Of a stretch of DNA of 64,000 bases, positions 2,623-32,602 are shown piece after piece. How positions within the stretch are numbered: the stretch's first letter is position 1; each line of letters begins with the position of its first letter. The stretch spans positions 992,099 through 1,056,098 of the forward strand of contig CAWIXE010000002.1 in assembly GCA_963840035.1 (NCBI GenBank). The letters are read 5' to 3'. The translations under genes were made by a program, and so were the position numbers. The notes beneath the pieces were generated by a model. That model searched no databases. It saw nothing but the letters and a program-made list of their open reading frames with translations, and was not told the origin of the DNA. This stretch comes from a candidate division FCPU426 bacterium (lineage in GTDB: Bacteria > Oederibacteriota > PGYV01 > Palsa-1178).

Positions 2623-2780
2623 TTTGTCATTGCGAGGAGGCGTTTTTGTAATTTGCCGACGAAGTCCTTCGACTTCGCTCAGGACCATGAGCCTGTCGAA
2701 TGGCAATCCCGCTGTTCCAGAAGGAGAAAACGCGATTGCTTCGTCGCCATAAGTCAACTACGGTTCCTCGCAATGACAAA
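2623..2780. repeat. ~158-bp palindromic MITE/REP-like intergenic element, copy 1
   Basis: Terminal inverted repeats 'tttgtcattgcgagga' / 'tcctcgcaatgacaaa'; internal core 'aagtccttcgacttcgctcaggaccatgagcctgtcgaatggcaatc' identical to copy at 18519..18668. Confidence 0.75.
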
Positions 2781-2869: not shown

Positions 2870-4726
2870 CTAAAAAGGAATTACCCCGCCCACCAGCAAC
2901 TGTATATTCCCCGCCGACATTGAATCCACTCCGTCAGGAAGCGGGCTGCTCATTATGGATGTGTAGCCAATGAGCCCGTCCAGCTGGATTTTTCCCATGG
3001 CATATCCCGCGCCAAGCGTTATTGTAAGGTCGTTTTGGTTGGGATTATCAGCGGTGCCCGGCGCCGGGCCGCTTACTCCTCCGGCTTTGGTTTTTTCAGA
3101 GGTTGTTGAAAAAGATAAACCGGCCCTTAACGCAAGCTCCCTGGAGAGCTTGTATTCACAACCGGCAGACGCTTTAATTGTGGATTTATCGTCAGTTGAC
3201 TCGCCTCCGGTGTACTTCGCCCCCTGTCCGTTATTTTCAAATTTAAATTCAACGGGTATGAGCAGTGATTCTGAAAGGTTCATCGTCGTGCCGGCTGCTA
3301 TGCCGAGATAGCCAAGCGATATTGTTGTGGGATCCGTATCGGTTGAACTGCTGAAATATTTATACCCCGCGCCTCCTAACTGCACGCCGAGGCCCAGCGT
3401 AAATATTCCGAACCTGTAACGTCCCTTAACTCCGAAGTTCATAAGGGATCCGTCCTTTGCCGGGCTGTATGCAGGCAAATCAGTCGTTGTTGACGCTCCG
3501 GTGCTTATTGTCGTTACAGTCCGTTTGGATGTTGACTTTCCGCCAATCCCGGCTGTCATGCCGAACCCCGCGAGCAATTCAAGATTATCCTTTTCATAAG
3601 CGCCGGCAAGCGATACATTAACTCCTGATGCGGCAATATCCGTGACTGTCGCCACATGAAATCCCATCATCTCATATGTGTCTGTAACTTTAATATTCCG
3701 CAGGTCTATATATGTCTGCGCGCTGTTTACCGAAGGCGCGCTGTATAATGTCATGGAAGCTCCCGGCCATGGCGCGAGCGAGCTTTTATCCGAAACCATC
3801 AATCCTGCCGTAACTTTTCCTGCCGACGCGGCTAATTCAGGGACATATGAGGCTGAAAGCCCCCACTCAATCTGGCTTGTCTCTGTTTTTGTGAGCGCGC
3901 CAAAAGCCAGGTCGCCAATTTCGTCAAACCATCCTCCGTTATAGCCGGCATATACGCCGGCTGAAAATCCGCGGAAGATCAGTCTTGAGTACTCAACCTG
4001 AGTCATAAGCACATTCGCAGGCGCCTTGACTTCCGTTGAGAATCCGCCGCCGGACATTTTTGTGGCAAGCCCTACGTTCATATAGAATAATTTCAGGTTA
4101 AGGACATCACTGTTTGTCAGCCAGTACGTGACAGCGCTATAATTCCTTACCGGATCGGCCGACAGCGGGAATCCGCCGCCGCCCAATTCAAATGTGGAGT
4201 CAATAGGGGGTGATGACACGGACTTTGACCAGGCGCTGAAATAACCTGTTATTGCAGAGGCCAGGTTCTTTCTCGGCCTTAAAACAAGGCCCGAAGCGAA
4301 TCCGGTACCGCCGTACATGTCAAAAGCCGACGACGCGTCGCGCAGTGTAAGCTCAGGGGCGCCCAGCGCAGCCATCCTGCTGTAACTGCCGTTGTAATAA
4401 TAAGCGCCGCCGCCTGCCGCGCCGCGGGGTTTTAAGGAATCAATGTATTTCTTAAGAGCCGGTGATTTTTTTATTTCATATGATTTTTCCAGGTATTGCG
4501 CCGCGCCTGCCCTGTCCTTCATGGCCAGCCTGCAGTACCCCATATACATAAAAGCCGCAGCGTTTTTGGGGTTTAAAGACGCAGCGCCTTCAAAAGCCGT
4601 AAAAGCGGCTGAATACTTCTTTTGGGCATATAGCTTCGAGCCATTTTCCATATAGGTTTTTTCAGAAATACCGAACAACGAAATCGAAAACATGAACAGA
4701 ATGATTATAATTGCGTTTTTTTTCAT
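2870..4726 (-). CDS. secreted TPR-containing protein with C-terminal beta-rich (outer-membrane-like) region
   Basis: Signal peptide (MKKNAIIIILFMFSISLFG), TPR-like N-terminal segment, Gly/Ser/Thr-rich alternating C-terminal region ending in aromatic residue. Confidence 0.5.
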   Translation of the reverse strand: MKKNAIIIILFMFSISLFGISEKTYMENGSKLYAQKKYSAAFTAFEGAASLNPKNAAAFMYMGYCRLAMKDRAGAAQYLEKSYEIKKSPALKKYIDSLKPRGAAGGGAYYYNGSYSRMAALGAPELTLRDASSAFDMYGGTGFASGLVLRPRKNLASAITGYFSAWSKSVSSPPIDSTFELGGGGFPLSADPVRNYSAVTYWLTNSDVLNLKLFYMNVGLATKMSGGGFSTEVKAPANVLMTQVEYSRLIFRGFSAGVYAGYNGGWFDEIGDLAFGALTKTETSQIEWGLSASYVPELAASAGKVTAGLMVSDKSSLAPWPGASMTLYSAPSVNSAQTYIDLRNIKVTDTYEMMGFHVATVTDIAASGVNVSLAGAYEKDNLELLAGFGMTAGIGGKSTSKRTVTTISTGASTTTDLPAYSPAKDGSLMNFGVKGRYRFGIFTLGLGVQLGGAGYKYFSSSTDTDPTTISLGYLGIAAGTTMNLSESLLIPVEFKFENNGQGAKYTGGESTDDKSTIKASAGCEYKLSRELALRAGLSFSTTSEKTKAGGVSGPAPGTADNPNQNDLTITLGAGYAMGKIQLDGLIGYTSIMSSPLPDGVDSMSAGNIQLLVGGVIPF

Positions 4727-4782
4727 ATAAACACCTCTCCCTTTTTTTATATATTAACATGAAAAACGGGGGGTGTAAAGAC

Positions 4783-4856
4783 CATTGACAATTGTTGATT
4801 GACGATTGACAATTAATTACTACAACAATCAAAAAAGCAATTGTCAATTGTCAATT
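4783..4856. promoter_or_regulatory. cluster of ATTGACAATT direct and inverted repeats (candidate operator/hairpin) between PilZ gene stop and TPR-protein gene start
   Basis: 'cattgacaattg', 'gattgacgattgacaatt' and inverted 'caattgtcaattgtcaatt' within 75 bp. Confidence 0.35.
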
Positions 4857-5264
4857 ACTTTCTGGATTTAACAAATAATTCCACACCGACTCAAACTGGT
4901 TCTTGAAATATGCCTCCATGTAACGCCTTTCTTCTTCAGTCATTGCCGCGAATTCGAGGCCTATGCTGTACTGCATGCTTTCTTCGCCAAGGAATATGTG
5001 CCCGTTCCACACTACCTCGCAAACCGCGTGTATTTCCTTTCCGTCAAGGATAAAATCCACCCTTAATATGTCGCCGGGCTGGAACTTGTCATAGGTAAGG
5101 ATGCCTATGCCGCCTTCCGAGATATCATGGCCTTTGGCTTTTACAAACTGTTCATGTTCGACCGCTTCAGCGCCCATCCTTAAGATTTTGTATTTAACAT
5201 CCCTGTTCATCGGAAGCCTTTGCGCCTTTCTTCTCTCTTTTAACATAAGGTCCATAGAATCCAC
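4851..5264 (-). CDS. PilZ domain protein (c-di-GMP receptor-like)
   Basis: 'RRKAQR' (RxxxR) and 'DISEGGIGI' (DxSxxG) PilZ signature motifs. Confidence 0.7.
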   Translation of the reverse strand: MDSMDLMLKERRKAQRLPMNRDVKYKILRMGAEAVEHEQFVKAKGHDISEGGIGILTYDKFQPGDILRVDFILDGKEIHAVCEVVWNGHIFLGEESMQYSIGLEFAAMTEEERRYMEAYFKNQFESVWNYLLNPESN

Positions 5265-5271
5265 CTCCCTG

Positions 5272-7197
5272 CTATTTTAGGATTACCATCTTTTTTGTTA
5301 TCGTTTTACCCTGCGCCGATACCTTTATCAGGTACACGCCGCTTGCGGCTTTCATTCCGCGCTCATTGTCAAGGTTCCATACAACTTCGTTAATCCCCGG
5401 CCGGGTGGCCGCGGCTGTAAGGGTTTTAGCCCAGACCGGCTTATTATTGATATCGGTAATCAACATACCCGCCTCACAGCTTTCCTTTAGGGGGAACCTT
5501 ATCGTTGTAAAATCCCGGCACGGGTTTGGATAGTTATAAGTCTCTGCCGGGTCAAGGGTCTCATAACGAGATTCAACAACTATTGGCGCCGGATTTTTAT
5601 CCGCAAGGACAAAAACCCTAGCGCATTTCTTGCGGGTGTCAATGGCATACTCAACGCCGCATTTCCCGCAGTAAATAATGACACCTTCCGGGAAACCCCT
5701 GGTTAAGAACAACCTGAATAAATTGTCGGCAATTACGCCAAAGTTGGACTTATTGCATCCTTTTTCAGCCATATTGAATTCGCATGATTTTATGGCATGG
5801 CCCTTTGACGGCAGTTCTATATAAATCTTTTCAAGCTTTGTAAAATGGTCATGGGACATCCTGAACCTGAAAACATGCATGCATTTAACTGCTGTCGTTG
5901 CCGGAGTTATTTCGGTTGTGGGCACTTGTGTAGGCATCACGGTTGCCGTCTCTTTAATTATTACAACCACTGTCGCTGTTTCAGTTGGTGTTTGTGTAAA
6001 TGTTTCTGTATCAACAGGCGTTTCAGTAAACGTTTCAGTATTGGTTGGCGTTTCAGTAAACGTTTCAGTATTGGTTGGCGTTTCAGTAAACGTTTCAGTA
6101 TTGGTTGGCGTTTCAGTGAAGATTTCAGTATTGGTTTGTGTTTCAGTGAAAGTCTCAGTATCAGCAGGAGTCTCCGTGAACGTCTCCGTGGCTGTAAATG
6201 TTTCCACAGGCAGCTGCGTCGGTTCTTCAATACGCAGTTCAAAAACAGCTACGCCTTCAGGATAGTTAAACTGCCCCGGCAACGGGCCCTTTACAGCCCC
6301 GAAACTCTTTTCAAACAGTCCATCGGAATTAAATTTCTGTACCCTGTTATTGCCGGCGTCAGCCACATATACATAACCCTCTGAATCCACTGATATGCCG
6401 TATATGTCGCCAAACTGCCCCGCAGCCGCGCCTTTGCTTCCCCATTTTAATTCAAACGCGCCCTCGCGCGAGAACCTCTGCACCCTGTAATTATTCGCGT
6501 CAGCCACATATACCCTGCCGCTGCTGTCGATTGCGGCGGCGCGCGGGTAATTGAACTTGCCTTCCGCCGACCCTATTCCGCCGATTATCTGAAGCGCGTT
6601 GCCGAACGCGTCAAGTTTTTTAACCCTGTTATTTAAAGTATCACATACATATATCAGTCCTGTAACGGTGTCAACTGCCACACCCTGGGGGTTATTGTAG
6701 TCCATGATACCGCTGCCGGCCTTTGTTGAGCCAAAAGTCATAGCCCATGTACCGTCAGCGTTTAAGACCTGTATTCTGTTGTTTCCGGTGTCAGCCACTA
6801 CCACGCGTTCAAGCCCGTCAGTGACTATAACTGCAATGCTGTTCGGGCTGGAAAAACCGCCATTAAGCTTGCTGCTTGCCGGCCCGCCCCAGGTCCCGCG
6901 CCAGTTTCCTGAAGTGTCAAATACCTGCAGCCTGTTATTACCCGTATCAGCTACATATATAAGGCCGCTTGCCATTCCTGCCGCAATGGAACCCGGATAA
7001 CTAAACTGGCTTACCCCGCTGCCTTTTGAGCCCCATGACATAATAACATTGCCGTCAAAATCCATTGATTGGATCCTGTAATTTGAGGTATCAGAGATGA
7101 ATATCGAGCGGATTGTCTGGGCTTGTGTATTATTTGCCAGGAGTAAAAGTACTGTAAGGCTGGTCAGCGTTTGTAGGAGTGATTTTTCTGTTTTCAT
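5272..7197 (-). CDS. secreted NHL-repeat protein with Thr-rich tandem-repeat linker and T9SS-type (Por/FlgD-Ig-like) C-terminal domain
   Basis: Start set at MKTEKS (RBS AAGGAGGTG upstream); repeated 'YVADTGNNRLQVF'-type NHL blades; 'TNTETFTETP' repeats; C-terminus 'NYPNPCRDFTTIRF...GVYLIKV...KKMVILK'. Confidence 0.7.
   Translation of the reverse strand: MKTEKSLLQTLTSLTVLLLLANNTQAQTIRSIFISDTSNYRIQSMDFDGNVIMSWGSKGSGVSQFSYPGSIAAGMASGLIYVADTGNNRLQVFDTSGNWRGTWGGPASSKLNGGFSSPNSIAVIVTDGLERVVVADTGNNRIQVLNADGTWAMTFGSTKAGSGIMDYNNPQGVAVDTVTGLIYVCDTLNNRVKKLDAFGNALQIIGGIGSAEGKFNYPRAAAIDSSGRVYVADANNYRVQRFSREGAFELKWGSKGAAAGQFGDIYGISVDSEGYVYVADAGNNRVQKFNSDGLFEKSFGAVKGPLPGQFNYPEGVAVFELRIEEPTQLPVETFTATETFTETPADTETFTETQTNTEIFTETPTNTETFTETPTNTETFTETPTNTETFTETPVDTETFTQTPTETATVVVIIKETATVMPTQVPTTEITPATTAVKCMHVFRFRMSHDHFTKLEKIYIELPSKGHAIKSCEFNMAEKGCNKSNFGVIADNLFRLFLTRGFPEGVIIYCGKCGVEYAIDTRKKCARVFVLADKNPAPIVVESRYETLDPAETYNYPNPCRDFTTIRFPLKESCEAGMLITDINNKPVWAKTLTAAATRPGINEVVWNLDNERGMKAASGVYLIKVSAQGKTITKKMVILK
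6021..6140. repeat. 30-bp in-frame tandem repeat, 3 perfect + 1 degenerate copies, inside NHL-protein gene
   Basis: Unit 'tttcagtaaacgtttcagtattggttggcg' at 6021, 6051, 6081; degenerate copies flank. Confidence 0.85.
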
Positions 7198-7373
7198 GTC
7201 GCTCACCTCCTTCGCAGTTCCCCTCTCATTTGTAATATAGCTCACAAATGATTTTTTGTCAAGTATTATGTTAAGTATATTGTTAGTATTTAACTAAAGT
7301 GCACGAAAACGCCACTAAAATATGGTGAATTTTTGAAATATCGAATATTGTGTTTTTTGATTTTTTGCGTTTT

Positions 7374-9512
7374 TTAAAAATTATAGGTTAATGATATTCC
7401 CACATTTTCCATATCCAGCATGGGCGCAAACCCTATCTTATTTTCCTTTGCTATTCTTTCGCTTCTGTTGGTATAAACCGCGTTGTAAACCGCGGTATAG
7501 CCGGGCGCGGAAGCCACATCAGCAAGATATGAAATTCCAAATAAAGCAATACCCGCATAGCGCATAAAATCCTGCGTCGTATTCCCTGTTTTTGTCCCCG
7601 GGTTGGCGAGGTATAACACCGCGCCAAGCGCTTCAACGCCTGCCAGAGTAAACGCCGTTGAATAATTTTCCGCGTAAAAATTACCCGCGCCATGCGCGAG
7701 CAGTCCGGGGCCGGCCGCTATTAAAAACGCGATGCCCGGTTCCTTTTCATCTTTCTTTTCCGTTACCTTATACGGGCTGTTCGGGCAAAGAAGCTGTTTG
7801 TAATATTCCGAATTGACATTATCGGTATGCAGCAGCGAGCCATAAAGGTCTATGCACCTCATGACGGTGTAAACGCCGATTGCGGAATACATAAAACCCT
7901 GCGCGATCTTTTTATTATCATCGCCGGCTTTTCCGTTATAAATCATTCCCACCCCGTATGTAATGCCCGTTAAAATCGGCGTGGCAATAAGCAGCTTAAG
8001 CGCTGTCTCGTTATCGCCCGCCCACCAGTGCCCTGCTCCGGGAATAATTCCGGCGGTAAGCGAGAATACGGAAGTAAGGGCCGGGTCTTTGTATTCCACC
8101 CTTTCCTTTTCAACTTTAAGCTCCATCGTTTTTATCTTATTAAGGTACAGCTCCGCGTTCTCGGTTGCCACAAAAGGAGCCGTGACATAATCAGTCAAAA
8201 GCCCCGCCGCCATCATGCCGGCTCCTGCTGACATAAGCGCGTAATCGGATTTTTCCGTATTTTCAAATTTACCGTTGATTATGGCGCCGGCCGTGATAAG
8301 CATGCCGCCCACTATGGTAAGCGACGAAGACGCGGGCGTCCATGTCTGCAGCCTGCTCCGCGAATAGAAATTACCGAACCCGGCGTAAAGCAGGTTTATG
8401 GGAAAAAGGTCTATGTACGAAAACATATGGGCCGAGAAAGGCGATTTAAACTCCTCATCAACATTCCTCCCCGCGTAAATCTTGTCCATACCCGCCGCGT
8501 GCGACGCCTCAAGTTTTGTGAGGTATGACGCGGTGGAAACATCGCCCGGATTATAAGACAGGTATTTTTTATAGAAAACTATTGCCTGCTCTTTATTGCC
8601 GAAAGAAACATAACAGTTGCCGAGGCGCTGATACGCCTGGTATATGCCCGCGTTGAGTTTTACAACCTCGGAATAGGCGTAGAATGCCTGCTTGTAGTTG
8701 CGCTGAGATTCCAGGGCCAGCCCTTTTTTATAATACTCCTGCGCCTTTGCCTTATTATCGTCAACCGGCGCTATTTTACCCGCTTCTTCAGCCAGTTTTT
8801 TATTTTGTTCTTCAAGTTTTTTCGCGTTTTCCTGCTGTTTTTTCTCGCTCTCGCGCTGCTGCTCTTCAAGCTGTTTCTGAGCGTCCTTCTGCTGCTGTTC
8901 ATACTGGCGCTGCTGTTCCTCGGTGCGTTTCTTCGCGTCCTGCTGCTGTTGTTCATACTGACGCTTCTGTTCCTCAGTACGGTTTTTGGCGTCCTGTTGC
9001 TGCTGTTCGTACTGGCGTTTCTGTTCTTCAGTACGGTTCTTCGCGTCTTTCTGCTGCTGTTCATACTGCCGTTGCTGCTCTTCAGTTCGTTTTTTTGCGT
9101 CCTGTACCTGCTGTTCATTCTTTCGTTTCTGTTCTTCAGCCTGTTTCTTAGCTTCATTTAAGCGCTCTTCATAGCGTTTCTGGCTGTCATCAGCCGCCAT
9201 TTTTGAGTCTTTATTCTTCTGTTCGACAGCCTTTAACTGTTCTTCCTTTTTTGCCTTCAGCGCTTCCTGATTCTTTTTATAGGCTTCCTGCCTTGCTTTA
9301 TAATCAGCAAGCTTCTTATTATAAGCCTGCTGTGTAGCCTGCGCCACTGCCGCCTTTATCTTAGAAACTACAGGCTTTACAGTTTTGACTGGAACCGCTT
9401 TAACCGCAGGTTTAACCGTAGGTATTGCCGTAGGCTTAACCGTAGAAGCAGCCGCTCCAAAGAGCATATTTGCCGAAGCCAAAAGCACAATTAGCAGTAT
9501 ATATTTTCTCAT
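7374..9512 (-). CDS. secreted coiled-coil repeat / TPR protein with C-terminal putative beta-barrel-like domain
   Basis: Signal peptide; 18-aa Q/E/K-rich repeats (DAKNRTEEQKRQYEQQQQ); TPR-like segment; C-terminus ends '...ISLTYNF'. Confidence 0.5.
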   Translation of the reverse strand: MRKYILLIVLLASANMLFGAAASTVKPTAIPTVKPAVKAVPVKTVKPVVSKIKAAVAQATQQAYNKKLADYKARQEAYKKNQEALKAKKEEQLKAVEQKNKDSKMAADDSQKRYEERLNEAKKQAEEQKRKNEQQVQDAKKRTEEQQRQYEQQQKDAKNRTEEQKRQYEQQQQDAKNRTEEQKRQYEQQQQDAKKRTEEQQRQYEQQQKDAQKQLEEQQRESEKKQQENAKKLEEQNKKLAEEAGKIAPVDDNKAKAQEYYKKGLALESQRNYKQAFYAYSEVVKLNAGIYQAYQRLGNCYVSFGNKEQAIVFYKKYLSYNPGDVSTASYLTKLEASHAAGMDKIYAGRNVDEEFKSPFSAHMFSYIDLFPINLLYAGFGNFYSRSRLQTWTPASSSLTIVGGMLITAGAIINGKFENTEKSDYALMSAGAGMMAAGLLTDYVTAPFVATENAELYLNKIKTMELKVEKERVEYKDPALTSVFSLTAGIIPGAGHWWAGDNETALKLLIATPILTGITYGVGMIYNGKAGDDNKKIAQGFMYSAIGVYTVMRCIDLYGSLLHTDNVNSEYYKQLLCPNSPYKVTEKKDEKEPGIAFLIAAGPGLLAHGAGNFYAENYSTAFTLAGVEALGAVLYLANPGTKTGNTTQDFMRYAGIALFGISYLADVASAPGYTAVYNAVYTNRSERIAKENKIGFAPMLDMENVGISLTYNF
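8881..9100. repeat. 54-bp in-frame tandem repeats (about 4 copies) encoding 18-aa coiled-coil units
   Basis: Units beginning 'gcgtcct(t/g)ctgctg...ttcatactg...' recur every 54 bp. Confidence 0.75.
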
Positions 9513-9513
9513 A

Positions 9514-10152
9514 TCAGAACCTCCACGAAAGGCGTGCGGGTATGTAATTAAGCGCCCACGCCGAAGGCCCTAAAGGGATGTACCACAACTTAACCACCTG
9601 TCTAAGGTCTGTGGCTTCAGTAAACATCACCGAGAAAGCGGTTGATAAAACCAGGTTGTCGGTAAGGTTAGCTGAAACTCCTACTTCCACAGAGGGAGAA
9701 AAGAAAGATGAAGAGGTGGTTTCAAGCACCGAGTGTATCTCCCCTGTCTCATTCCTCATAGGATAGGAGGCATTGCCGGAATTAAGTTTTTGTCTTGAGA
9801 CAAAGGAAAAAGAAGGCAGCAGGTTGATAAAGAGGCTGTATCTTTCATCAATTGCGGAAGTCCTGGCCCCGAGGATTACGGCTATATTGGTTATCGCGTC
9901 ATTATATACCGTGTCAGAAAGCGTTGCGGAATCATTATAAAGCATGGGTATGTAAGTAAGCCTGCCGCCGATATAGAAGTTATTAGTGGCGTTGTAAACG
10001 CACTGCCCTTCATATACGGGAAGGTTAATAGCCGCCGAAATAGCGTACCCAATCCCGGCCTCAACGCCGTTATCAAAACTCTTCATTTTAAAAGCCGATA
10101 TAACCGGCACAAACAGCGCCACCAAAACAATCGCTCCAATAAGTCTCTTCAT
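9514..10152 (-). CDS. outer-membrane beta-barrel-type protein
   Basis: Start set at MMKRLIGAIVLVALF signal peptide; alternating hydrophobic pattern, C-terminal '...ARLSWRF'. Confidence 0.5.
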   Translation of the reverse strand: MKRLIGAIVLVALFVPVISAFKMKSFDNGVEAGIGYAISAAINLPVYEGQCVYNATNNFYIGGRLTYIPMLYNDSATLSDTVYNDAITNIAVILGARTSAIDERYSLFINLLPSFSFVSRQKLNSGNASYPMRNETGEIHSVLETTSSSFFSPSVEVGVSANLTDNLVLSTAFSVMFTEATDLRQVVKLWYIPLGPSAWALNYIPARLSWRF

Positions 10153-10331
10153 CATTTCTCCTTTTTCCCCAATAAAACAATTATATTTTATCACGTCTTA
10201 CATATATTAGTCAATTTTTAACCAAATTAGTTCCGTTTAAAAGCCCAATCGTAAATCAACAACAAACAACTTCGCAGCACTTATGCTTTTCCATTATATG
10301 CCCGCACAAGCAACAAAATAGTCAGGTTTTC

Positions 10332-10395
10332 GTAGAGACACAGCTTGCTGTGTCTCGCCTTTCAACGTCTGAGACGCAGCAAGCTGCGTCTCTAC
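10332..10395. repeat. 64-bp GTAGAGA...TCTCTAC double-hairpin repeat, copy A
   Basis: 'gtagagacacagcttgctgtgtctcgcctttcaacgtctgagacgcagcaagctgcgtctctac'; two adjacent perfect hairpins; ~97% identical to copy B. Confidence 0.8.
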
Positions 10396-10450
10396 AAAAA
10401 TCCGACTCATCAAGTAGTTCTTAGAATTGCCGTATTACATTTAAAAGCAA

Positions 10451-11104
10451 TTAAAAACTTGTTATGCAACGGGCTGTTTTCATAGGCGTTTTCTTTAACA
10501 TCGTTTTATATTTACCATATGTCCGCCATGTTAAAAAACCCATAAAACGCAAATAATAGATTTCGCATGCCTTCAAAAACGAAAATTTTTGCACCTTATT
10601 CTTATCTGAAACCGTCATTAGCCCGACCATATTCTTTCCTATGCTTGGTTTACCCTGATATAAAAACAGCGCAAAGTATGCGATAAACATTATGAACGCT
10701 ATTATCAGATTTACAGCCATTACGAGGTCGCTTATCACAACATAGCCCCGGATAAAGCCCCACTTAAATTCGCCCGTTCTTAAGTATTCCACACTCAGCG
10801 TAACACAGCTTGTTATCGCGCCGATTGGAATCATCAAAAAAAATGCGTCTATAATAAATGCTGCAGACTTACGTATCCATGACGGCTTTGCGTTAATTAT
10901 CTTAACTTTAAAATCAATGCGCTGAAAAAAATATATGAATACAAGATAAAAAACTGCCACCAGCACGCTTTTCAGTGATGAAACGGCATATACTTTTGTA
11001 GCGCCATTGCTTGATTGTATGGATGTGGCTGAACCAGGATTTAAGAAAATAAGAGCCAAAAATATAACAGTAATTATTTTATCCCAGTTTTTAATTTTAA
11101 CCAC
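10451..11104 (-). CDS. RDD family membrane protein
   Basis: Polytopic membrane protein with 'QGKPSIGKNMVGLMTV' resembling the RDD-domain G-x-[ST]-x-GK...G motif. Confidence 0.5.
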   Translation of the reverse strand: MVKIKNWDKIITVIFLALIFLNPGSATSIQSSNGATKVYAVSSLKSVLVAVFYLVFIYFFQRIDFKVKIINAKPSWIRKSAAFIIDAFFLMIPIGAITSCVTLSVEYLRTGEFKWGFIRGYVVISDLVMAVNLIIAFIMFIAYFALFLYQGKPSIGKNMVGLMTVSDKNKVQKFSFLKACEIYYLRFMGFLTWRTYGKYKTMLKKTPMKTARCITSF

Positions 11105-11147: not shown

Positions 11148-11211
11148 GTAGAGACACAGCTTGCTGTGTCTCGCCCTTCAACGTCTGAGACGCAGCAAGC
11201 CGCGTCTCTAC
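11148..11211. repeat. 64-bp GTAGAGA...TCTCTAC double-hairpin repeat, copy B
   Basis: Same sequence as 10332..10395 with 2 substitutions; lies between uvrA stop and RDD gene start. Confidence 0.8.
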
Positions 11212-11226
11212 AAAAAACAGAACAGG

Positions 11227-16301: not shown

Positions 16302-16392
16302 AGCTTAAAACTGAAAGCTTAAAACTGAAAATTGAGTCAAAACCGGACTTGAAATATTATTTCATTTTCAGTTTTCAGCTTTAAACTTTAAA
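16302..16392. repeat. simple-sequence imperfect inverted repeat at operon junction
   Basis: 'agcttaaaactgaaagcttaaaactgaaaattga' vs downstream 'ttcattttcagttttcagctttaaactttaaa'. Confidence 0.6.
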
Positions 16393-16398
16393 TTTGTC

Positions 16399-17211
16399 TT
16401 ACGACCCTATATGTATCGGGTCGACTATCTTCTTAATCAGCACTATGACCGACAGCGCCGTTATATAACTGGTTTTAGGGTTGCGCGGCGACGGAAGATT
16501 CTCCGATATGACCCTGAAACGGCCGAACTCGCCTTCGACTATTATTTCGTGCATATTTGAATTAATGAAAGGGTCTATGACTATCTTTACTTTTGTCCTA
16601 TCCGGCCCAATTCCTGCGATGCTTAACGTGGCTGCCACGTTCACGTTTGCCGGGAAATGCACCACTGCTTCCCTTGCTGACCCGTCGAACACGACAGTTT
16701 CCGTGGTAATAGCATCAAGGTTAATCTTCATCTTTTCAAGGTATTCGTTTCCCTTAAACGCCTGCGGCGGTTTGCGGGTAATAAGCGTGACTGAAGTCAG
16801 TCCGCTGAGTTTGGCCGCGTCAAGTCCGTCAATCCCCACCACGGCGCCGGACGGGACATAAATATTTATCTTCTGTTTCCTTGCCTCCTCCACGAGGTCC
16901 ATGCAGTCGAGCACTCCTCCGGCAGAGAGGAACATGATGTCCCTTTTATGCTTTATCGCCAGCTCAAAAAAGCCCCTTACGGCGGATTTAACCGCGCATT
17001 CCACAACCAGGTCGCAGGACTTTATGAGGTCTTCGACATCCATGAATATCGGTTTTACGCTTTTATACTTTGCGGAAAGCGCGTCAAACTTTGACTTGTC
17101 CTTGTCATAGCAGGCGTGCAAAGTAACATTTATGTCCCCTTTGTCAATGGCCATGGCTATTTCGCTTCCGATGTTACCGCACCCAATTACCCCGAGTTTT
17201 TTCGTGTCCAT
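16399..17211 (-). CDS. nadX: L-aspartate dehydrogenase
   Basis: 'GVIGCGNIGSEIA' Rossmann motif and C-terminal '...ENLPSPRNPKTSYITALSVI...' resembling Thermotoga NadX. Confidence 0.75.
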   Translation of the reverse strand: MDTKKLGVIGCGNIGSEIAMAIDKGDINVTLHACYDKDKSKFDALSAKYKSVKPIFMDVEDLIKSCDLVVECAVKSAVRGFFELAIKHKRDIMFLSAGGVLDCMDLVEEARKQKINIYVPSGAVVGIDGLDAAKLSGLTSVTLITRKPPQAFKGNEYLEKMKINLDAITTETVVFDGSAREAVVHFPANVNVAATLSIAGIGPDRTKVKIVIDPFINSNMHEIIVEGEFGRFRVISENLPSPRNPKTSYITALSVIVLIKKIVDPIHIGS

Positions 17212-17220
17212 TTTTTCCCT

Positions 17221-17580
17221 CTACTTTATCCTGTTATTTTTATCCACTTTCACGATGCGCGGTTTAAAGGCCGACCTTTGCCCCGCCTCGACCAATCCGT
17301 ATGACACAATGATAATGACGTCATTTTTTTCGGCGAGCCTGGCGGCCGCGCCGTTTATGCATATCTGCCCCGAACCTTTTTTTCCTTTTATGACATATGT
17401 CTCAAACCGGTTCCCGTTATTGATATTAAGGACATGCACTTTCTCATTTTCAAAAATATCCGCCGCTTCCATGAGCTTCTCGTCTATGGTAATGGACCCC
17501 TCGTATTCAAGGTGTTTATCCGTCACACTCGCGCGGTGAATTTTTGATTTCAGCATTTCTACAAGCATTGGAACCTCCAT
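17221..17580 (-). CDS. panD: aspartate 1-decarboxylase
   Basis: '[25 protein letters not shown]' with Gly-Ser self-processing site. Confidence 0.9.
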
Positions 17581-17629
17581 AAGGGCGAATTTTCAATTTT
17601 AAATTTTATATTTTCAATTAACACCGGAA

Positions 17630-18481
17630 CTACCCAGCTTGAATTATCGTATTGTCAATCAACCTGGTTTTGCCCACATATATCGCTGCCGCGATTAAAG
17701 CGCTGCCGGTTATCTTTTCGAGCGGCTTTAATGTCTTAGCGTCGACTATCTCCACGTAATCTATCTCTATGTTTGATTCCTTTAGTTTCCTTCTTATTTC
17801 CTTCTTCAGCGTATCGCAGGACTTTTCCCCGAGTTCTATCATGCTTTCCGCCATCTGCAGCGACTTATAAAGCGCCGGCGCGGTATTGCGCTCCTCAGGC
17901 GTTAAGTACATGTTCCTGGAGCTCAGCGCGAGGCCGTCCTTTTCCCTGAAAATCGGGCACACCACAACCTCGGTCTGATAGTTCAGGTCGGCGGCCATCT
18001 TTGTCAGCACTACGGACTGCTGCGCGTCTTTCTGGCCCAGGTAAAGCCTGTCGGGTTTTACTATATTAAGGAGCTTAGTCACTATGGTAGTAACGCCCTT
18101 AAAATGTTCGGGCCTTGTAATGCCGCAAAGGCATTTTGTCATTTCATTTTCGAGCGCCACGTACGTGGCGTACCCTTCCGGGTACATCATGGCGTTGTCC
18201 GGCGTAAACACGCAGTCAACTTTTTTCGACGCCTTTAGCATTTTCAGGTCCTTCTTAATGGGCCTGGGATACTTTTCAAAATCCTCGCCGGCCCCGAACT
18301 GTGAGGGATTCACATAAATGCTTACTATGACCTTTTCATTTTGCTTATCAGCTGCCTCAACAAGCGACATGTGCCCTTCATGAAGCGCGCCCATAGTCGG
18401 GACGAACCCGATGGTATGGCTGCGTTTCTTCAGCTTTGCCGTGTATTCATGCATTTCACTTAAAGTACCGATAATTTTCAT
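17630..18481 (-). CDS. panC: pantoate--beta-alanine ligase
   Basis: 'GFVPTMGALHEGHMSLV' HIGH-type motif, 283 aa. Confidence 0.9.
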   Translation of the reverse strand: MKIIGTLSEMHEYTAKLKKRSHTIGFVPTMGALHEGHMSLVEAADKQNEKVIVSIYVNPSQFGAGEDFEKYPRPIKKDLKMLKASKKVDCVFTPDNAMMYPEGYATYVALENEMTKCLCGITRPEHFKGVTTIVTKLLNIVKPDRLYLGQKDAQQSVVLTKMAADLNYQTEVVVCPIFREKDGLALSSRNMYLTPEERNTAPALYKSLQMAESMIELGEKSCDTLKKEIRRKLKESNIEIDYVEIVDAKTLKPLEKITGSALIAAAIYVGKTRLIDNTIIQAG

Positions 18482-18518
18482 TTCGCTCCTTATAAAATTA
18501 CACTCATTTTCTCAGCCA

Positions 18519-18668
18519 GTCATTGCGATGAGGCGCCTATTACTTCGCCGACAAAGTCCTTCGACTTCGCTCAGGGCCATGAGCCTGTCGAATGGCAATC
18601 TGGCTGTTTTAGAACTTAAACCAGATTGCTTCGTCGCCATAAATCAAATACGGCTCCTCGCAATGACA
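18519..18668. repeat. ~150-bp palindromic MITE/REP-like intergenic element, copy 2
   Basis: TIRs 'gtcattgcgatgagg' / 'cctcgcaatgac'; shares identical 48-nt core with 2623..2780; sits between panC and panB. Confidence 0.75.
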
Positions 18669-18690
18669 GTCCTTAACATTCACGCCATGC

Positions 18691-19479
18691 TTAATAATAA
18701 TTCTTTTTACCCGGGAACTTCCTGCCTCTGACGTCAGCCGAGAATTTTTTTACGGCTGTCACGGTGCGCGCCGCTATCTTTTCATATTGTTTTACAAACG
18801 ACGGCTTGAAATCCTCAAACGCTCCGAGCATGTCGTGCGTGACAAGCACCTGTCCGTCGCACCATGGCCCCGCGCCTATGCCGATGACCGGCACTTTTAC
18901 AGCTTTTGTTATCTCAGCGGCTGTTTTTGCCTCTGTTTTTTCCAGGACAATCGAGAAAACGCCGGCTTTTTCCAGCTGCATGGCTTCCTGTATAAGGCGC
19001 TGCTTGTCTTCCTCTGTCCTTCCCTGCACCGGATACCCGCCGTATTTATTCACTGACTGGGGCTGAAGCCCTATGTGGCCCATGACAGGCACGCCTATGG
19101 CTACCAGCGCCTTAACCTGCGGGATTATCTCTGCCCCGCCTTCTATTTTTACGGCGGACGCGCCTGATTCTTTCATTAACTTTCCGCAGTTCTTCAGCGC
19201 GTCTTTTACGGAAGCCTGATACGTCATGAACGGCATATCAGCCACAACCATGGTTTTTAACGCGCCGCGCTTTACCGATTTCACGTGGTAAATAACCTCT
19301 TCAAGCGTAACCGGAAGAGTGTCTTTTATCCCCTGAAAAACCATTCCAAGGGAATCGCCCACCAGTATTATATCGACGCCTGATTTTTCGAGGTATGACG
19401 CCATCAGGTAATCATACGCGGTAAGCATAACTATCTTCTGTTTTGACTTAAGTGATTTGACGAACGGGGCGGTAAGCAT
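18691..19479 (-). CDS. panB: 3-methyl-2-oxobutanoate hydroxymethyltransferase
   Basis: 'KIVMLTAYDYLMASYLEKSGVDIILVGDSLGMVFQG' PanB signature. Confidence 0.9.
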   Translation of the reverse strand: MLTAPFVKSLKSKQKIVMLTAYDYLMASYLEKSGVDIILVGDSLGMVFQGIKDTLPVTLEEVIYHVKSVKRGALKTMVVADMPFMTYQASVKDALKNCGKLMKESGASAVKIEGGAEIIPQVKALVAIGVPVMGHIGLQPQSVNKYGGYPVQGRTEEDKQRLIQEAMQLEKAGVFSIVLEKTEAKTAAEITKAVKVPVIGIGAGPWCDGQVLVTHDMLGAFEDFKPSFVKQYEKIAARTVTAVKKFSADVRGRKFPGKKNYY

Positions 19480-20127
19480 TTATTTCTCCTGCCTCGGGGT
19501 GTAATAGTTTATGCCGCCTTTAATATTCAGCACATAATTTTTTATCATCTGGTAGGCCTTTTTGTCAGAGGCAAAATCCACCTCGTCAGTATTTACAATG
19601 GCAAGCGGCGCCGATGTAAACGTGGAGAAAAAGTGGTTATAGGCCTGCGTGAGGTTGTATAAGTATTCCTTGGAAACTGATTTTTCAAAACTGCGTCCGC
19701 GCTTTTTTATCCTTTCCATAAGCGTTTCAATGGAAGCCTGCAGATAAATCACCAGATCCGGCTTTGCCAGGTTGCCTTCGTTGACAACGCTGGAGTATAT
19801 CTTTTCATACAGGTTAAGTTCGTTTTCATTTAGGGTGATATACGCGAATATGCGGTCCTTTTCTATAAGGTAATCCGCCACTATCTTTTTTGAAAAGAGG
19901 TCCATCTGCTTTAAGGGTTCCTGCTGCATGGCGCGGTTGACCAGGAATGTAAGCTGGGTCTGAAGGGCAAACGTGTCCATATCCTTATAAAATTTCTCAA
20001 GGAAAGGGTTATTGTCAACCTGCTCTAATACGATCTTTGCCTCAAGGTCGTCCGCAAGCATCTTGGCAAAAGTGGTCTTGCCGACACCGAGGACCCCCTC
20101 AACCGCTATATAGTGAAAATCCTTCAT
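19480..20127 (-). CDS. deoxynucleoside kinase family protein
   Basis: P-loop 'IAVEGVLGVGKTTFAKML' and dNK-like layout, 215 aa. Confidence 0.75.
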   Translation of the reverse strand: MKDFHYIAVEGVLGVGKTTFAKMLADDLEAKIVLEQVDNNPFLEKFYKDMDTFALQTQLTFLVNRAMQQEPLKQMDLFSKKIVADYLIEKDRIFAYITLNENELNLYEKIYSSVVNEGNLAKPDLVIYLQASIETLMERIKKRGRSFEKSVSKEYLYNLTQAYNHFFSTFTSAPLAIVNTDEVDFASDKKAYQMIKNYVLNIKGGINYYTPRQEK

Positions 20128-20610
20128 TTACAGCTCTCCAATCTTTTTTACGGATTCGCTGAAATTGCCATTTTTTAAGAGTTCTTTTATTGTTAATTTA
20201 AGGGCCGGATGAACGAAATCCGCCGCTATTTCCGATAAAGGCTCAAGCACAAACCTTCTTGCCGCTATTTCAGGATGCGGAATTTTAAGTTTTTCGCTGT
20301 CTATAATTATATTCTTATAAAACAATATGTCAATATCTATAATACGCTGGCCCCACCTGTCCGACCTGACCCTTCCCATGTCTTTTTCAATCTTTTTGGC
20401 GGTTTCCAGCAGTTTTTCAGGGTCAAGCTGGGTTTCCACCTGCAGGCAGATATTGTTGTAATCAGGCTGGCTTTTGACGCCTACCGGCTCAGATTCATAT
20501 AAACCTGTCTTTTTTATTATGGTAACGCCATTCTTTTCAAGAAGATGAATAGCGGTACGCAGGTTGTCCGCCCTGCTGCCAATGTTGGTCCCGAGACAAA
20601 GGTATATCAT
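20128..20610 (-). CDS. folK: 2-amino-4-hydroxy-6-hydroxymethyldihydropteridine pyrophosphokinase (HPPK)
   Basis: 'IYLCLGTNIG...RIIDIDILFY' HPPK motifs, 160 aa. Confidence 0.85.
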   Translation of the reverse strand: MIYLCLGTNIGSRADNLRTAIHLLEKNGVTIIKKTGLYESEPVGVKSQPDYNNICLQVETQLDPEKLLETAKKIEKDMGRVRSDRWGQRIIDIDILFYKNIIIDSEKLKIPHPEIAARRFVLEPLSEIAADFVHPALKLTIKELLKNGNFSESVKKIGEL

Positions 20611-21770
20611 TACTTCTTCAGACCCACCTTTTTAAGCCTGTCTATGGCTTTCTGTATCTTATCCTCTTCCACTGTCAGCGCGATACGGAAATACCTGTCG
20701 CCCGAGAGGCCGAATCCGATGCCGGGCGTGATTACCATATCAGCTTCCTCAAGCACCTTTGTGCAGAATTCCATGGATGTGAAGCCTTCCGGCACTTTTA
20801 CCCAAAGATATAGCGTGCCTTTTGATTCAAGGACATCATAACCGAGCGTCTTTAAACCGGCTGTAAAAGCGGCTGCCCTGTTGCGGTAAAGCCCGCGTAT
20901 CTTAGCCGCTTCATCATCACAGTTTGCAAGCGTCCACGCGGCTGTTTCCTGTATGGCCGTAAATGTCCCCGAGTCCATGTTTTCCTTTACCTTGCCAAGC
21001 CCGTCTATGATCTTTTCCGCGCCCACGGCAAAGCCTATCCTCCATCCCGTCATGTTGTATGTTTTTGACATGGAGTAAAACTCGATTACGTGGTCCTTTG
21101 CCCCCTGTATCTGCAGCATGGAAATGGGCGGCGCCCCGAAATAAATTTCCGAATAGGGCGCGTCCTGGGCGATTATGAAATCGTACTTTTCCGCGTAAGA
21201 GAGCGCTTCCTCATAAAACTGATAATCAGCCATGGCTGATGTCGGGTTATTCGGATAGTTTAACCACATTATTTTTGTCTTTTTAAAGACATCTTCCGGT
21301 ATCAGGCTGAAATCAGGGAGAAAATTATTTTCCGCGATGAGCGGCATGACATGCGTCTTTCCTCCGGATAAAAGCGTGCCGGAAGTATAACCGGGATATC
21401 CGGGATCGGGCACAAGCACTATGTCGCCCGGATTAATGAACGCAAGCGGCAGGTGCGTGATACCGTCCTTTGCCCCTATCAGGCAGGCAACTTCCTTATC
21501 AGTGATGGCGACATCAAACCGCTTGTCCATCCAGTCAACAACAGCCTGCTTAAACTGCTTGCTTCCGCGGCCGATAGGATACTGGTGGTTCGACGCCTTT
21601 TGCACAGACTCTTTGAAGTTGTCAATGATGGCCTGCGGAGTCGGCCTGTCCGGGTCGCCTATGCCAAGGTCCAATATGTCCCTGCCCGCCTCTCGCGCGG
21701 CTTTTTTCTTCTTATCCAGTTCAACAAAGACATAGGGCGGTAAAGACTTTAGATTGTTTGAAAATTCCAT
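20610..21770 (-). CDS. dapL: class I PLP aminotransferase, LL-diaminopimelate aminotransferase-like
   Basis: N-terminus 'LPPYVFVELDKKK...GRDILDLGIGDPDRPTP' typical of DapL-type enzymes; located in a dapB-dapA-dapF-lysA cluster lacking dapD/dapC/dapE. Confidence 0.6.
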   Translation of the reverse strand: MEFSNNLKSLPPYVFVELDKKKKAAREAGRDILDLGIGDPDRPTPQAIIDNFKESVQKASNHQYPIGRGSKQFKQAVVDWMDKRFDVAITDKEVACLIGAKDGITHLPLAFINPGDIVLVPDPGYPGYTSGTLLSGGKTHVMPLIAENNFLPDFSLIPEDVFKKTKIMWLNYPNNPTSAMADYQFYEEALSYAEKYDFIIAQDAPYSEIYFGAPPISMLQIQGAKDHVIEFYSMSKTYNMTGWRIGFAVGAEKIIDGLGKVKENMDSGTFTAIQETAAWTLANCDDEAAKIRGLYRNRAAAFTAGLKTLGYDVLESKGTLYLWVKVPEGFTSMEFCTKVLEEADMVITPGIGFGLSGDRYFRIALTVEEDKIQKAIDRLKKVGLKK

Positions 21771-24513: not shown

Positions 24514-24557
24514 GATAGACCTCCAGAAATTTTCAATTTTATATTTTCAATTTTCTA

Positions 24558-25370
24558 TTACCATTTTAATGCTTCAGGACCCGCCATGCCTTCGGCTACA
24601 ACCCTTGCGTTACCTTCAAGAAAAACATCATTAATTATGCCGCCGTTATCCTTGAAATATATCGTCAGTTTTCCGCCTTTGGCAAAGAGCGTTACCGGCG
24701 ATTTTGCCACGCCGTTTAAATACAGCGCGATGCCCGCGGCTGTCGCGCCTGTGCCGCACGCGTAAGTTTCAGCTTCCACTCCGCGCTCATACGTCCTTAT
24801 GGCGAATGAATTCTTGCCTGTTTTCTGGACAAAATTTACGTTTGTGCCCTTAGGGCCGAACACCCTGTGAAACCTGAGCATCCTTCCCGTCTTTGCCACA
24901 TCAACTTTTTTTATATCCTTAACCGGCACCACAAAATGCGGCACTCCGGTATTCATGAAAGCGCCTTCCACTCCGCCCGCTGTAACCGCTTTTTTTATGT
25001 CAAAAGGGTCTGTCATGCCAAGTTTCACTTCTCCGTTGGGCTTTACCTGGGCCGTATGCGGCCCGTCATTGGCCATGAACTTAACCGTCGTTCCGGAGTA
25101 TCCCTTCAGGTAAGAGAACCTGGAAATGCACCTCGCGCCGTTTCCGCACATGTCAGCTTCTTTGCCGTTGTTGTTATAAAACTTCATGGTAAAATCAAAT
25201 CCCTTTGAAGGCTTATTCAAAAGTATAAGCCCGTCAGCGCCTATGGAAAACCTGTTAGCGCAGAGCGCGGCTATTTCCTTAGCGGAAAGTTTTATCTTCC
25301 CCTTGTAATTGTCTATCACTATAAAATCATTCCCGTTGCCGGACATCTTGGTGAAGCGCAGTTCTTTCAT
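24558..25370 (-). CDS. dapF: diaminopimelate epimerase
   Basis: 'FTKMSGNGNDFIVIDN' and second-half Cys motif 'YERGVEAETYACGTGATAAG'. Confidence 0.9.
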   Translation of the reverse strand: MKELRFTKMSGNGNDFIVIDNYKGKIKLSAKEIAALCANRFSIGADGLILLNKPSKGFDFTMKFYNNNGKEADMCGNGARCISRFSYLKGYSGTTVKFMANDGPHTAQVKPNGEVKLGMTDPFDIKKAVTAGGVEGAFMNTGVPHFVVPVKDIKKVDVAKTGRMLRFHRVFGPKGTNVNFVQKTGKNSFAIRTYERGVEAETYACGTGATAAGIALYLNGVAKSPVTLFAKGGKLTIYFKDNGGIINDVFLEGNARVVAEGMAGPEALKW

Positions 25371-26717: not shown

Positions 26718-27097
26718 TTTAAGCCTCCGTAAATGCGTAAGTGTATAGTTTAAGAAATATAACATAATTGCGTTTTTTAGTCAATTTATAGATATAATGG
26801 CTGATTCGGGATTCTGGATTCTAAATTCTGGATTAAAACATCCCAAAACAATTTTACGCTTTATTTTAAAGCAATTTCCGGAAAACGGCAGACGGGAAGC
26901 TGATTTTTGAATAAGCTAAACGGGCACATAGTCATGCTTCACCTCCTGGTATATCCCAATCAAGCCGGCCCGCCAGACCAAAAACCAACCGTCAATTATA
27001 TCGCCTCAGCATCTCACATTATCACTGCAGCCTCCAGCACACCCCGTCAGCTAATTCAAAAATCAGCTTCCCGCCTGCCGCTTCTACGTGGTCTGTC

Positions 27098-31860: not shown

Positions 31861-31972
31861 ATATTTCCTCCTTTTTCCGGGCGTTCGCCCTGTGTTTTGT
31901 GCCTTCACTGAGGAAGACACCAACCCGGGAAAAAGGTTCCATAATAAAACGCATTATTTATAAGGCCATTTG

Positions 31973-31997
31973 TAGGGACAGCGCTCCCGCGCTGTCC
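31973..31997. repeat. GC-rich hairpin, inverted duplicate of hairpin at 32062..32083
   Basis: 'tagggacagcgctcccgcgctgtcc', palindromic stem 'ggacagcgc'/'gcgctgtcc'. Confidence 0.7.
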
Positions 31998-32045
31998 GCG
32001 CGGGGATTATGTTATGATTTTTAAACGTGGCTATAAATTCAGGTG

Positions 32046-32083
32046 AAAAAAAAACGCCGGCGGACAGCGCGGGAGCGCTGTCC
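32046..32083 (-). terminator. Rho-independent terminator immediately after 32084..32602 gene
   Basis: Minus strand reads 'ggacagcgctcccgcgctgtcc' followed by 'gccggcg' and U9. Confidence 0.65.
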
Positions 32084-32602
32084 CTACTCTGCGTACACCC
32101 ATTCAAAATCTCTTATTTTACTATTCCAATAAGCAATCGCGCTGTCAGCGTGAAACCGTTTAAACATGATTACCGGCGTTTTAAAAGTCCGGCCCTGCCA
32201 TGTCCCGGTGAAACTTTCCAGGCTGAGGTTATCCGGTAAGGATTTATACTTTCCCAGGAAATATTTCCTGTAATTGGAGCCTTCGCTGATCAAAGCGATA
32301 GCCTGAGCGGAAAAATTCACAACAACCCCGTTTTCCACCACATCCGACCTGACAATAAAGGCATAATCCTTTATGCCGTCAGAGTTAAAATCCGTGTTTA
32401 CATATCCCGGGCTTTTTAGTGTTATCTTGTGTTTCTTTAAAAAGGTTAAAAAATCATCGCTTAAATCCTTTACAGTCATTGTCCTTGCGTCAGGGCCGAA
32501 TGACATGAGCACGCTTTCAAAATTAAGGCCTTCAATTGGCCAGATCTGTGAAAAACAGAAAACAGGAAGTAATATTAAAACAAGTACAAAGATTTTTTTC
32601 AT
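32084..32602 (-). CDS. secreted hypothetical protein
   Basis: 172 aa, signal peptide MKKIFVLVLILLPVFCFSQ; no recognised motif. Confidence 0.5.
   Translation of the reverse strand: MKKIFVLVLILLPVFCFSQIWPIEGLNFESVLMSFGPDARTMTVKDLSDDFLTFLKKHKITLKSPGYVNTDFNSDGIKDYAFIVRSDVVENGVVVNFSAQAIALISEGSNYRKYFLGKYKSLPDNLSLESFTGTWQGRTFKTPVIMFKRFHADSAIAYWNSKIRDFEWVYAE

Follow-up and report, generated by a model that had tools for sequence, protein, structure and literature searches.

On the minus strand of the 64,000-nt stretch of DNA analyzed here (the window), NCBIfam assigns seven genes, transcribed in the order dapL (20610-21770), folK (20128-20610), a deoxynucleoside-kinase-like gene (dNK, 19480-20127), panB (18691-19479), panC (17630-18481), panD (17221-17580), and nadX (16399-17211). 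The spacer upstream of dapL measures 98 nt and those inside the operon 0 to 49 nt, apart from the 209 nt that separate panB from panC, the largest gap of the operon. Both genes bordering this gap are intact, panB encoding 262 aa, a length shared with its relatives, and panC 283 aa. The gap holds an imperfect palindrome of about 150 nt (hereafter copy 2), in which GTCATTGCGA begins at 18519 and TCGCAATGAC runs to 18667, the plus strand reading GTCATTGCGATGAGGCG at 18519 and CGGCTCCTCGCAATGAC up to 18667; with the flanking tag bases included, the element spans 18518..18668. Viewed in the direction in which panB and panC are transcribed (minus strand), it is a head-to-head doublet of two tagged stem-loop units, separated by 22 nt from the panB stop codon and by 36 nt from the panC ATG. 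The panC ribosome-binding site, AAGGAG (18486-18491), lies outside both copy 2 and its fold. The original prediction had described a palindrome at 18519-18668, in the only sizeable gap of a tightly packed nadX-panDCB-folK-dap operon (209 nt vs 0 to 49 nt for the other internal gaps), as one of two copies in the window; the sequence bears out each of these points, the other copy (copy 1) being found at 2625-2778 with about 85% identity.

Both copies adopt an identical Y-shaped fold, on either strand. The outer stem is formed by GTCATTGCGAGGAG with CTCCTCGCAATGAC and the second stem by GCCGACGAAG with CTTCGTCGCC, from which two arms branch, a central stem-loop (GCAATC-NNG...CNN-GATTGC) and a side hairpin (TTCGAC-TTC-GCTCA-loop-TGAGC-CT-GTCGAA). 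The outer arms pair at 13 of 14 positions in copy 2 and at 14 of 14 in copy 1. Predicted folding energies of the sense-strand RNA were -65.3 kcal/mol (z = -5.9) for copy 2 and -72.3 kcal/mol (z = -7.4) for copy 1; copy 2 folded as DNA gave z = -5.7, and none of 200 dinucleotide shuffles folded as well as the real copies. The sense strand contains slightly more G-U pairs than the plus strand, which, coming from two sequences, is weak evidence.

The two units of copy 2 differ in build. The canonical unit, which lies 5' in the mRNA (18622..18668, minus strand; cmsearch 46.9 bits, E = 2e-8, a row in the training alignment), consists of a TGTC tag, an ATTGC/GCAAT foot, a GAGGA/GACGAA internal loop, a distal GCCGTA/TATGGC stem closed by a 7-nt AT-rich loop, and a C tail. 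The second unit is inverted and carries an AGTC tag (18518..18602, plus strand; cmsearch 17.1 bits, E = 0.15, outside the training set). Relative to the model it has a 65-nt insertion, with a hairpin nested between GACAAAG and the 3' foot GCAATC. This nested 38-nt hairpin (18557..18594), to which the element owes its Y shape, is built from the stems TTCGAC/GTCGAA (18560-18565 with 18587-18592) and GCTCA/TGAGC around a GGGCCA loop and is the same in both copies save for one loop base. The central stem-loop (18595..18629, GCAATCTGG ... CCAGATTGC) corresponds to the two facing unit feet. In the covariance-model alignment, the plus-strand units of both copies have the 38-nt hairpin nested between GAC(G/A)AAG and GCAATC. 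Since both copies thus share the same asymmetric composite, nested hairpin included, the 150-nt doublet was copied whole.

Copy 1 (2625..2778, minus strand) has the same composite and orientation as copy 2 and aligns with it over 153 nt (local blastn, E ~1e-43), the longest exact stretch common to the two being 24 nt. The roughly 24 differing columns fall mostly in loops, and the central stem shows one compensatory change, from C-G to G-C (CCGC/GCG in copy 1, CTGG/CCAG in copy 2). The neighbors of copy 1, both on the minus strand, are a gene for a TPR/outer-membrane beta-barrel protein (2870-4726) and an S49 peptidase gene (1554-2474), and the element is located 91 nt past the upstream stop codon. 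The region from uvrA to the S49 peptidase gene (window 2870-11104) is itself variable: ~8.7 kb long in the window, where it encodes large repeat-rich proteins, it shrinks to 205 nt (L082 14761-14965) and 1.1 kb (L069 19702-20791) in relatives. A GTAG-tagged doublet bounds this island toward uvrA, and copy 1 bounds it toward the peptidase gene. Several short ORFs of 42 to 106 aa cross the elements (18411-18731 and 2587-2808 on the plus strand, 18512-18640 and 2627-2833 on the minus strand), with translations such as ...SLSNGN..., ...DCFVAI..LLAMT, and ...PFDRLM.LSEVEGL.... These ORFs are artifacts of the repeat, likely to be miscalled as hypothetical proteins, and those over copy 2 (106, 42, and 24 aa) should not be annotated as genes.

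As the panB-panC spacing in genomes lacking the element had been proposed as a check, loci from relatives were obtained via PanC homologs, among which seven have the gene order dapL-folK-dNK-panB-panC-panD-nadX. None of the seven carries the element, and their panB-panC spacers range from 7 to 86 nt: P0002 (PanC 77% identical to that of the window), 7 nt; P0003 (76%), 27 nt; P0008 (74%), 11 nt; P0004 (73%), 86 nt; P0014 (72%), 75 nt; P0018 (71%), 20 nt; and P0031 (65%), 10 nt. The nearest named PanC relatives belong to Candidatus Goldbacteria, also at 65%. With the element removed, the window spacer would be 58 nt long, inside the range of the relatives. The original prediction was to be refuted if relatives had this sequence at the orthologous site and nowhere else; the loci show the reverse. 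Given its absence from all seven syntenic loci, copy 2 is a lineage-specific insertion into the panB-panC spacer. Hence, the earlier suggestion of a recent insertion finds support with respect to insertion but not with respect to recency, the two window copies being ~15% apart and the nearest relative having a PanC just 77% identical.

To place the element in a broader context, we turned to phage and plasmid collections. With the full element as query, blastn returned no match in these collections; the canonical 37-nt unit alone did. The pattern GTCATTGCGA-N100-130-TCGCAATGAC matched in 39 IMG/VR phage contigs, within which a unit of the form (T/C)GTC-ATTGC-GAG(G)-[short variable hairpin]-CG(A/T)(A/G)-GCAAT-C recurs; the corresponding form in the window elements is (T/C)GTC-ATTGC-GAGG-[variable hairpin]-CGACGAA-GCAAT-C. 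The 235 occurrences in these contigs comprise singletons, tandem arrays (~21 to 41 nt spacing), and inverted pairs. A T precedes GTC in 142 of them, a C in 86, an A in 4, and a G in 3, and GCAAT is followed by C in nearly all, CTCA, CTCT, CTCG, and CCAG being the commonest tails. The four units of the window have the tags TGTC (three units) and AGTC (one), the tails CCCG, CTGG, CGCG, and CTGG, a 5-bp foot stem, and AT-rich loops of 7 to 12 nt. Outside phages, head-to-head doublets of canonical units with CGTC on both sides, 80 to 85 nt long and intergenic, were found on Methylosinus trichosporium pOB3b1 and Novosphingobium aromaticivorans pNL2, the latter doublet 14 nt past a stop codon. Further unit matches came from plasmids of Methylocystis, Calothrix, Trichormus, Legionella, and Halomonas, cyanobacteria thus being among the hosts; all of these plasmid doublets and unit matches are unannotated. 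The unit is therefore a widespread, cross-phylum hairpin repeat, the same tagged hairpin recurring in numerous uncultivated bacteria and, in phages, in operons of structural genes.

Other searches aimed at the composite or its parts returned little, and in none of the collections covered did the exact composite turn up outside the window. The 18-mer GCCTGTCGAATGGCAATC had 26 loci in species-representative genomes, a set in which the source genome is absent, all of them chance or partial matches, while GTCGAATGGCAATC-N25-55-GATTGCTTCG gave one match in metagenomes, by chance and inside a coding region. A viral scan for the nested hairpin yielded two chance coding matches, and a viral scan for the composite none. 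A six-frame concatenated 'protein' query, directed at spurious ORFs over other copies, returned nothing at E <= 1e-3.

In portal-, capsid-, and terminase-encoding phage contigs (IMG/VR L006 at 1861, 3718, 4296, and 5815; L039; L004; L036), single tagged units sit in almost every short gap between structural genes, in sense orientation and 4 to 20 nt past the stop codon, sometimes leaving ~6 nt before the next start codon. Tandem arrays of GTCATTGCGA are spaced at ~21 to 26 nt in L009 (3027-3140), L036 (6493-6647), and L039 (~30 motif matches) and at ~41 nt in other loci such as L029. Such arrays resemble BIME-like clusters more closely than single insertions.

An alignment of 37 IMG/VR units and the two canonical window units was used to examine how the hairpin is conserved. 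The foot helix is invariant in this alignment, in part by construction of the search. The distal helix, however variable in sequence, covaries: 31 double-change cells were counted vs 5.6 in shuffles, a value reached by none of 500 shuffles, with two-sided changes at all five pairs and with all slid registers collapsing. Likewise, the variable distal part exceeds shuffles in structure (p = 8e-9). Of the two strands, the tagged one has the more stable fold (-11.2 vs -9.3 kcal/mol, p = 6e-10) and more G-U pairs (51 vs 35). A covariance model of the unit retrieved exactly four units from the window, two per element and including two that lay outside the training set; it found none in the rest of the window and none in ~135 kb from relatives.

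We compared these features with known bacterial repeats. Di Nocera, De Gregorio and Rocco (2013, BMC Genomics 14:522, PMC3733652) divide REPs into a GTAG-tagged and a CGTC-tagged superfamily. According to the text of that paper, CGTC repeats have an unpaired 5' CGTC tag, 'changed to TGTC' in many (TGTC or CCTC being tolerated), and a short C-rich 3' tail, mostly CCA; the four published families have an 8 to 9 bp stem that starts with A-T pairs in the first two positions and a 4 to 5 nt loop. Most form head-to-head dimers, tags on the outside, in gaps flanked by unidirectional or convergent ORFs and near the 3' end of the upstream ORF, and no transposase is associated with them (PMC3733652). 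CGTC-1 is equated with dRS3 of Neisseria, CGTC-1 and CGTC-4 with RPE-6 and RPE-4 of Rickettsia, and the enzyme that mobilizes CGTC REPs was left open by the authors (PMC3733652). Measured against this description, the unit shares the YGTC tag (T or C in 228 of the 235 related units; TGTC three times and AGTC once in the window), a stem that opens with A-T pairs (ATT...AAT in the window unit), and, in the ORFs examined, the lack of an associated transposase gene. Its short 3' tail, which begins with C in nearly all units but is most often CTCA, CTCT, CTCG, or CCAG, may correspond to the C-rich tail of the paper. Similarly, each of the two elements in the window is a head-to-head doublet flanked by genes that run in one direction, located 22 nt (copy 2) or 91 nt (copy 1) past the upstream stop, and there is overlap in hosts, N. 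aromaticivorans having canonical CGTC doublets of the window unit. Unlike the CGTC repeats as that text describes them, the window-type unit, 23 to 60 nt or more in length, has a 5-bp foot, a GA-rich internal loop, and a distal hairpin that varies, its loops in the window are 7 to 12 nt long, one unit holds the nested 38-nt hairpin, and one tag is AGTC. Hence, the architecture of the unit is that of the CGTC-tagged REP superfamily with stem and loop sizes other than those published, and the 5-bp foot, internal loop, and second stem put it outside the four CGTC families as the paper words them. A search with 10- to 12-mer sequence motifs, covering the literature and the supplements of PMC3733652 but with Figure 2 of that paper outside its scope, found no description of the unit. 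The element is a CGTC-like tagged doublet with a nested hairpin, made of a unit for which we found no sequence-level description in the literature.

The element also resembles REPINs, i.e., REP doublets that form hairpins and are mobilized by RAYT/TnpA-REP transposases (Bertels and Rainey 2011, PMC3116915, PMC3337134; Quentin et al. 2018, PMC6006769). Like these, it consists of two inverted stem-loop units and a spacer that together make one long hairpin of ~100 to 150 nt, it is intergenic and non-coding, and it has a tetranucleotide 5' of the hairpin foot. The doublet rather than the single unit gets copied, as seen in the asymmetric composite common to both window copies. In contrast to REPINs, the window tag is YGTC rather than GTAG or GTGG (GT[AG]G), and no RAYT gene was found adjoining any copy. 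Doublets of the GTAG-tagged, REPIN-like kind are present in the same window at 10332-10405, 11148-11221, and 31972-32087, unrelated in sequence to the element. The first two are 95% identical copies of a GTAGAGAC...GTCTCTAC doublet that bracket an ORF at 10451-11104, and the third, GTAGGGACAGCGC...GCGCTGTCCCTAC, has 28-nt perfect arms. The bracketed ORF was considered as a RAYT candidate and rejected, being RDD-like. Taken together, we estimate at about 70% the probability that the element is a non-coding, non-autonomous REP-type repeat, in the form of a head-to-head, REPIN-like doublet of tagged units, inserted in the panB-panC spacer in this lineage.

How such a repeat would bear on expression of the operon depends on whether it is transcribed. 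On the coding (minus) strand, no promoter-like and no terminator-like site was predicted across 18482-18690, and the sequence downstream of copy 2 in the sense direction, GGCUGAGAAAAUG, lacks a U-tract. Given that the coding strand has neither promoter nor terminator, copy 2 is probably co-transcribed and panC, panD, and nadX would depend on read-through. As part of the dapL...nadX polycistronic mRNA, it would fold into the stable Y. It would sense nothing and at most modulate the transcript, whether as a barrier to 3'-to-5' decay for the panB-proximal part, as a processing site, or through mild polarity, effects of the kind that E. coli REP/BIME elements exert. An internal attenuator or processing site, as put forward in the original prediction, is conceivable on this evidence.

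Alternatively, copy 2 could be an exapted element, a former selfish repeat that has since been kept because its hairpin makes the two halves of the operon mRNA differ in stability or processing. In E. coli, REP/BIME elements act as intercistronic stabilizers of upstream mRNA. In the malE-malF paradigm, a stable palindrome likewise lies between two cistrons, soon after the upstream stop and without a U-tract, although there is no sequence relation to the window element. Two further observations would agree with selection at the RNA level, namely the phage single units in sense orientation 4 to 20 nt past structural-gene stop codons and the better folding of the tagged strand noted above, and the position 22 nt past the panB stop fits the CGTC pattern in the published text. 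Relatives, however, manage without the element, and the sense bias of units between co-directional genes is modest (61 vs 41). The phage units after stop codons fit either RNA-level selection or tolerated insertion sites, and since the doublet holds one unit in each orientation, it carries no readable strand preference. We consider exaptation unlikely, if deserving of some weight.

The manner in which the repeat moves was approached through its flanks and through the neighboring genes. The flanks of the copies (ATGTTT/AAACTG and CAGCCA/AGTCCT) are without a direct repeat at either copy, and inspection revealed neither a target-site duplication nor a common target motif, the relatives' spacers being too diverged to give the exact insertion point. 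No RAYT, Y1, or transposase gene was found among the 59 larger ORFs of the window, 49 of which were judged by the best 25 of 69 Pfam families, no transposase adjoined the related units among 132 neighboring ORFs, and no parent IS with the same ends was seen in the window or the fetched loci. These results bear on whether the element is a classical MITE, i.e., a deletion derivative of a DDE-transposase IS moved by cut-and-paste via its 14-bp terminal inverted repeats and leaving target-site duplications. Its size of ~150 bp, its 13 to 14 bp terminal inverted repeats, its intergenic position, its at least two copies, and the empty orthologous site in relatives all agree with this, and elements such as Correia/NEMIS and Nezha are alike in size, in terminal inverted repeats, in being intergenic, and in being co-transcribed with their neighbors. 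Unlike those elements, it has no target-site duplication, and no parent IS was seen in the DNA examined. Moreover, what would be its terminal repeat is a free-standing, modular unit that also occurs singly or in arrays spaced ~21 to 41 nt apart, as DDE ends do not, and complementarity continues through the entire element, beyond the ends. We give a classical MITE only a slim chance and retain the REP-type doublet. For REPs, the TnpA-REP enzyme acts on single-stranded DNA hairpins and reads a tetranucleotide at their foot (PMC6006769). Purely by analogy with REPs, the units may spread as single-stranded DNA hairpins recognized in trans by an HUH/Y1-type enzyme that reads tag and foot.

A dedicated cis-regulatory RNA (riboswitch or attenuator) setting the level of panC-panD-nadX against that of panB would account for why the only large gap of the operon holds a highly stable three-way structure on its sense strand and for the small excess of G-U pairs on that strand. 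Two findings count against a conserved riboswitch or attenuator at this site: all seven syntenic relatives lack the element, and a near-identical copy lies between the TPR/outer-membrane and S49 peptidase genes. Rfam searches of the whole window (gathering threshold) and of the spacer (E <= 10) gave nothing relevant, with chance matches to snoR24 and RAGATH-8, and neither a U-tract, a terminator-like site, nor sequestration of the panC ribosome-binding site is present. Because a spacer between unrelated genes holds the same element, and because the unit it is built from recurs in several phyla, copy 2 is best described as an ordinary genomic repeat, and a role as dedicated pantothenate regulator is essentially excluded. 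For annotation, the gap in the pantothenate operon can be recorded as a genomic repeat, which removes the false lead of a pan-specific regulator. An independent small-RNA gene or antisense transcript, for which the stable structure and a promoter-like site on the plus strand adjoining copy 2 (18673-18701) might speak, has a negligible chance, as that site lies past the plus-strand 3' end of the element and points outward, neither strand has a terminator downstream of the element, Rfam has no match, and the element is a multi-copy repeat.

Beyond the REP-type doublet at this locus, we raise as an unlikely proposition that YGTC-ATTGC...GCAAT-C is a single, still-active mobile hairpin family common to Alpha- and Gammaproteobacteria, cyanobacteria, candidate phyla, and tailed phages. 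Tag, foot, and GA-rich loop would then be the site of a trans-acting enzyme, the missing mobilizer of CGTC REPs, and the doublet in the pan operon would have moved there recently and would influence how the operon mRNA decays. Owing to its distinctive composite and clear empty sites, this genome would be a convenient one in which to follow how such hairpins move and whether operon mRNA is affected.

Two copies were seen in 68 kb (the window and L078). Logan contigs of sample ERR11594406 match the window exactly, and all three of the contig ends examined at the elements fall inside them, at 18639, 18652, and 2681, as expected of a multi-copy repeat. Given that the two window copies share no more than 24 nt of exact sequence, these breaks indirectly suggest further, closer copies in the source genome, although strain polymorphism could also produce them. 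The repeat thus accounts for the breaking of short-read assemblies of this organism at panB-panC. Other Logan contig ends fall in a GTAG doublet (11148-11221) and in an AT-rich repeat.

This AT-rich heptad repeat, (AATTTTC/AATTTTA)n, with which a Logan contig end coincides, is found at 16305-16398, at 17588-17623 in the panC-panD spacer, at 24528-24563, and in the last 30 nt of L078. It lies in short spacers upstream of minus-strand genes, with five matches against a chance expectation of 0.17. A third kind of inverted repeat (26883-26924 with 27042-27083) occupies the spacer between the Orn/DAP decarboxylase and Band 7 genes, its 42-nt arms being 86% complementary and 117 nt apart. Finally, in-frame tandem repeats occur in two minus-strand ORFs, seven copies of a 30-nt repeat at 5954-6223 in the ORF at 5272-7245 and six copies of a 54-nt repeat at 8776-9207 in the ORF at 7374-9512.
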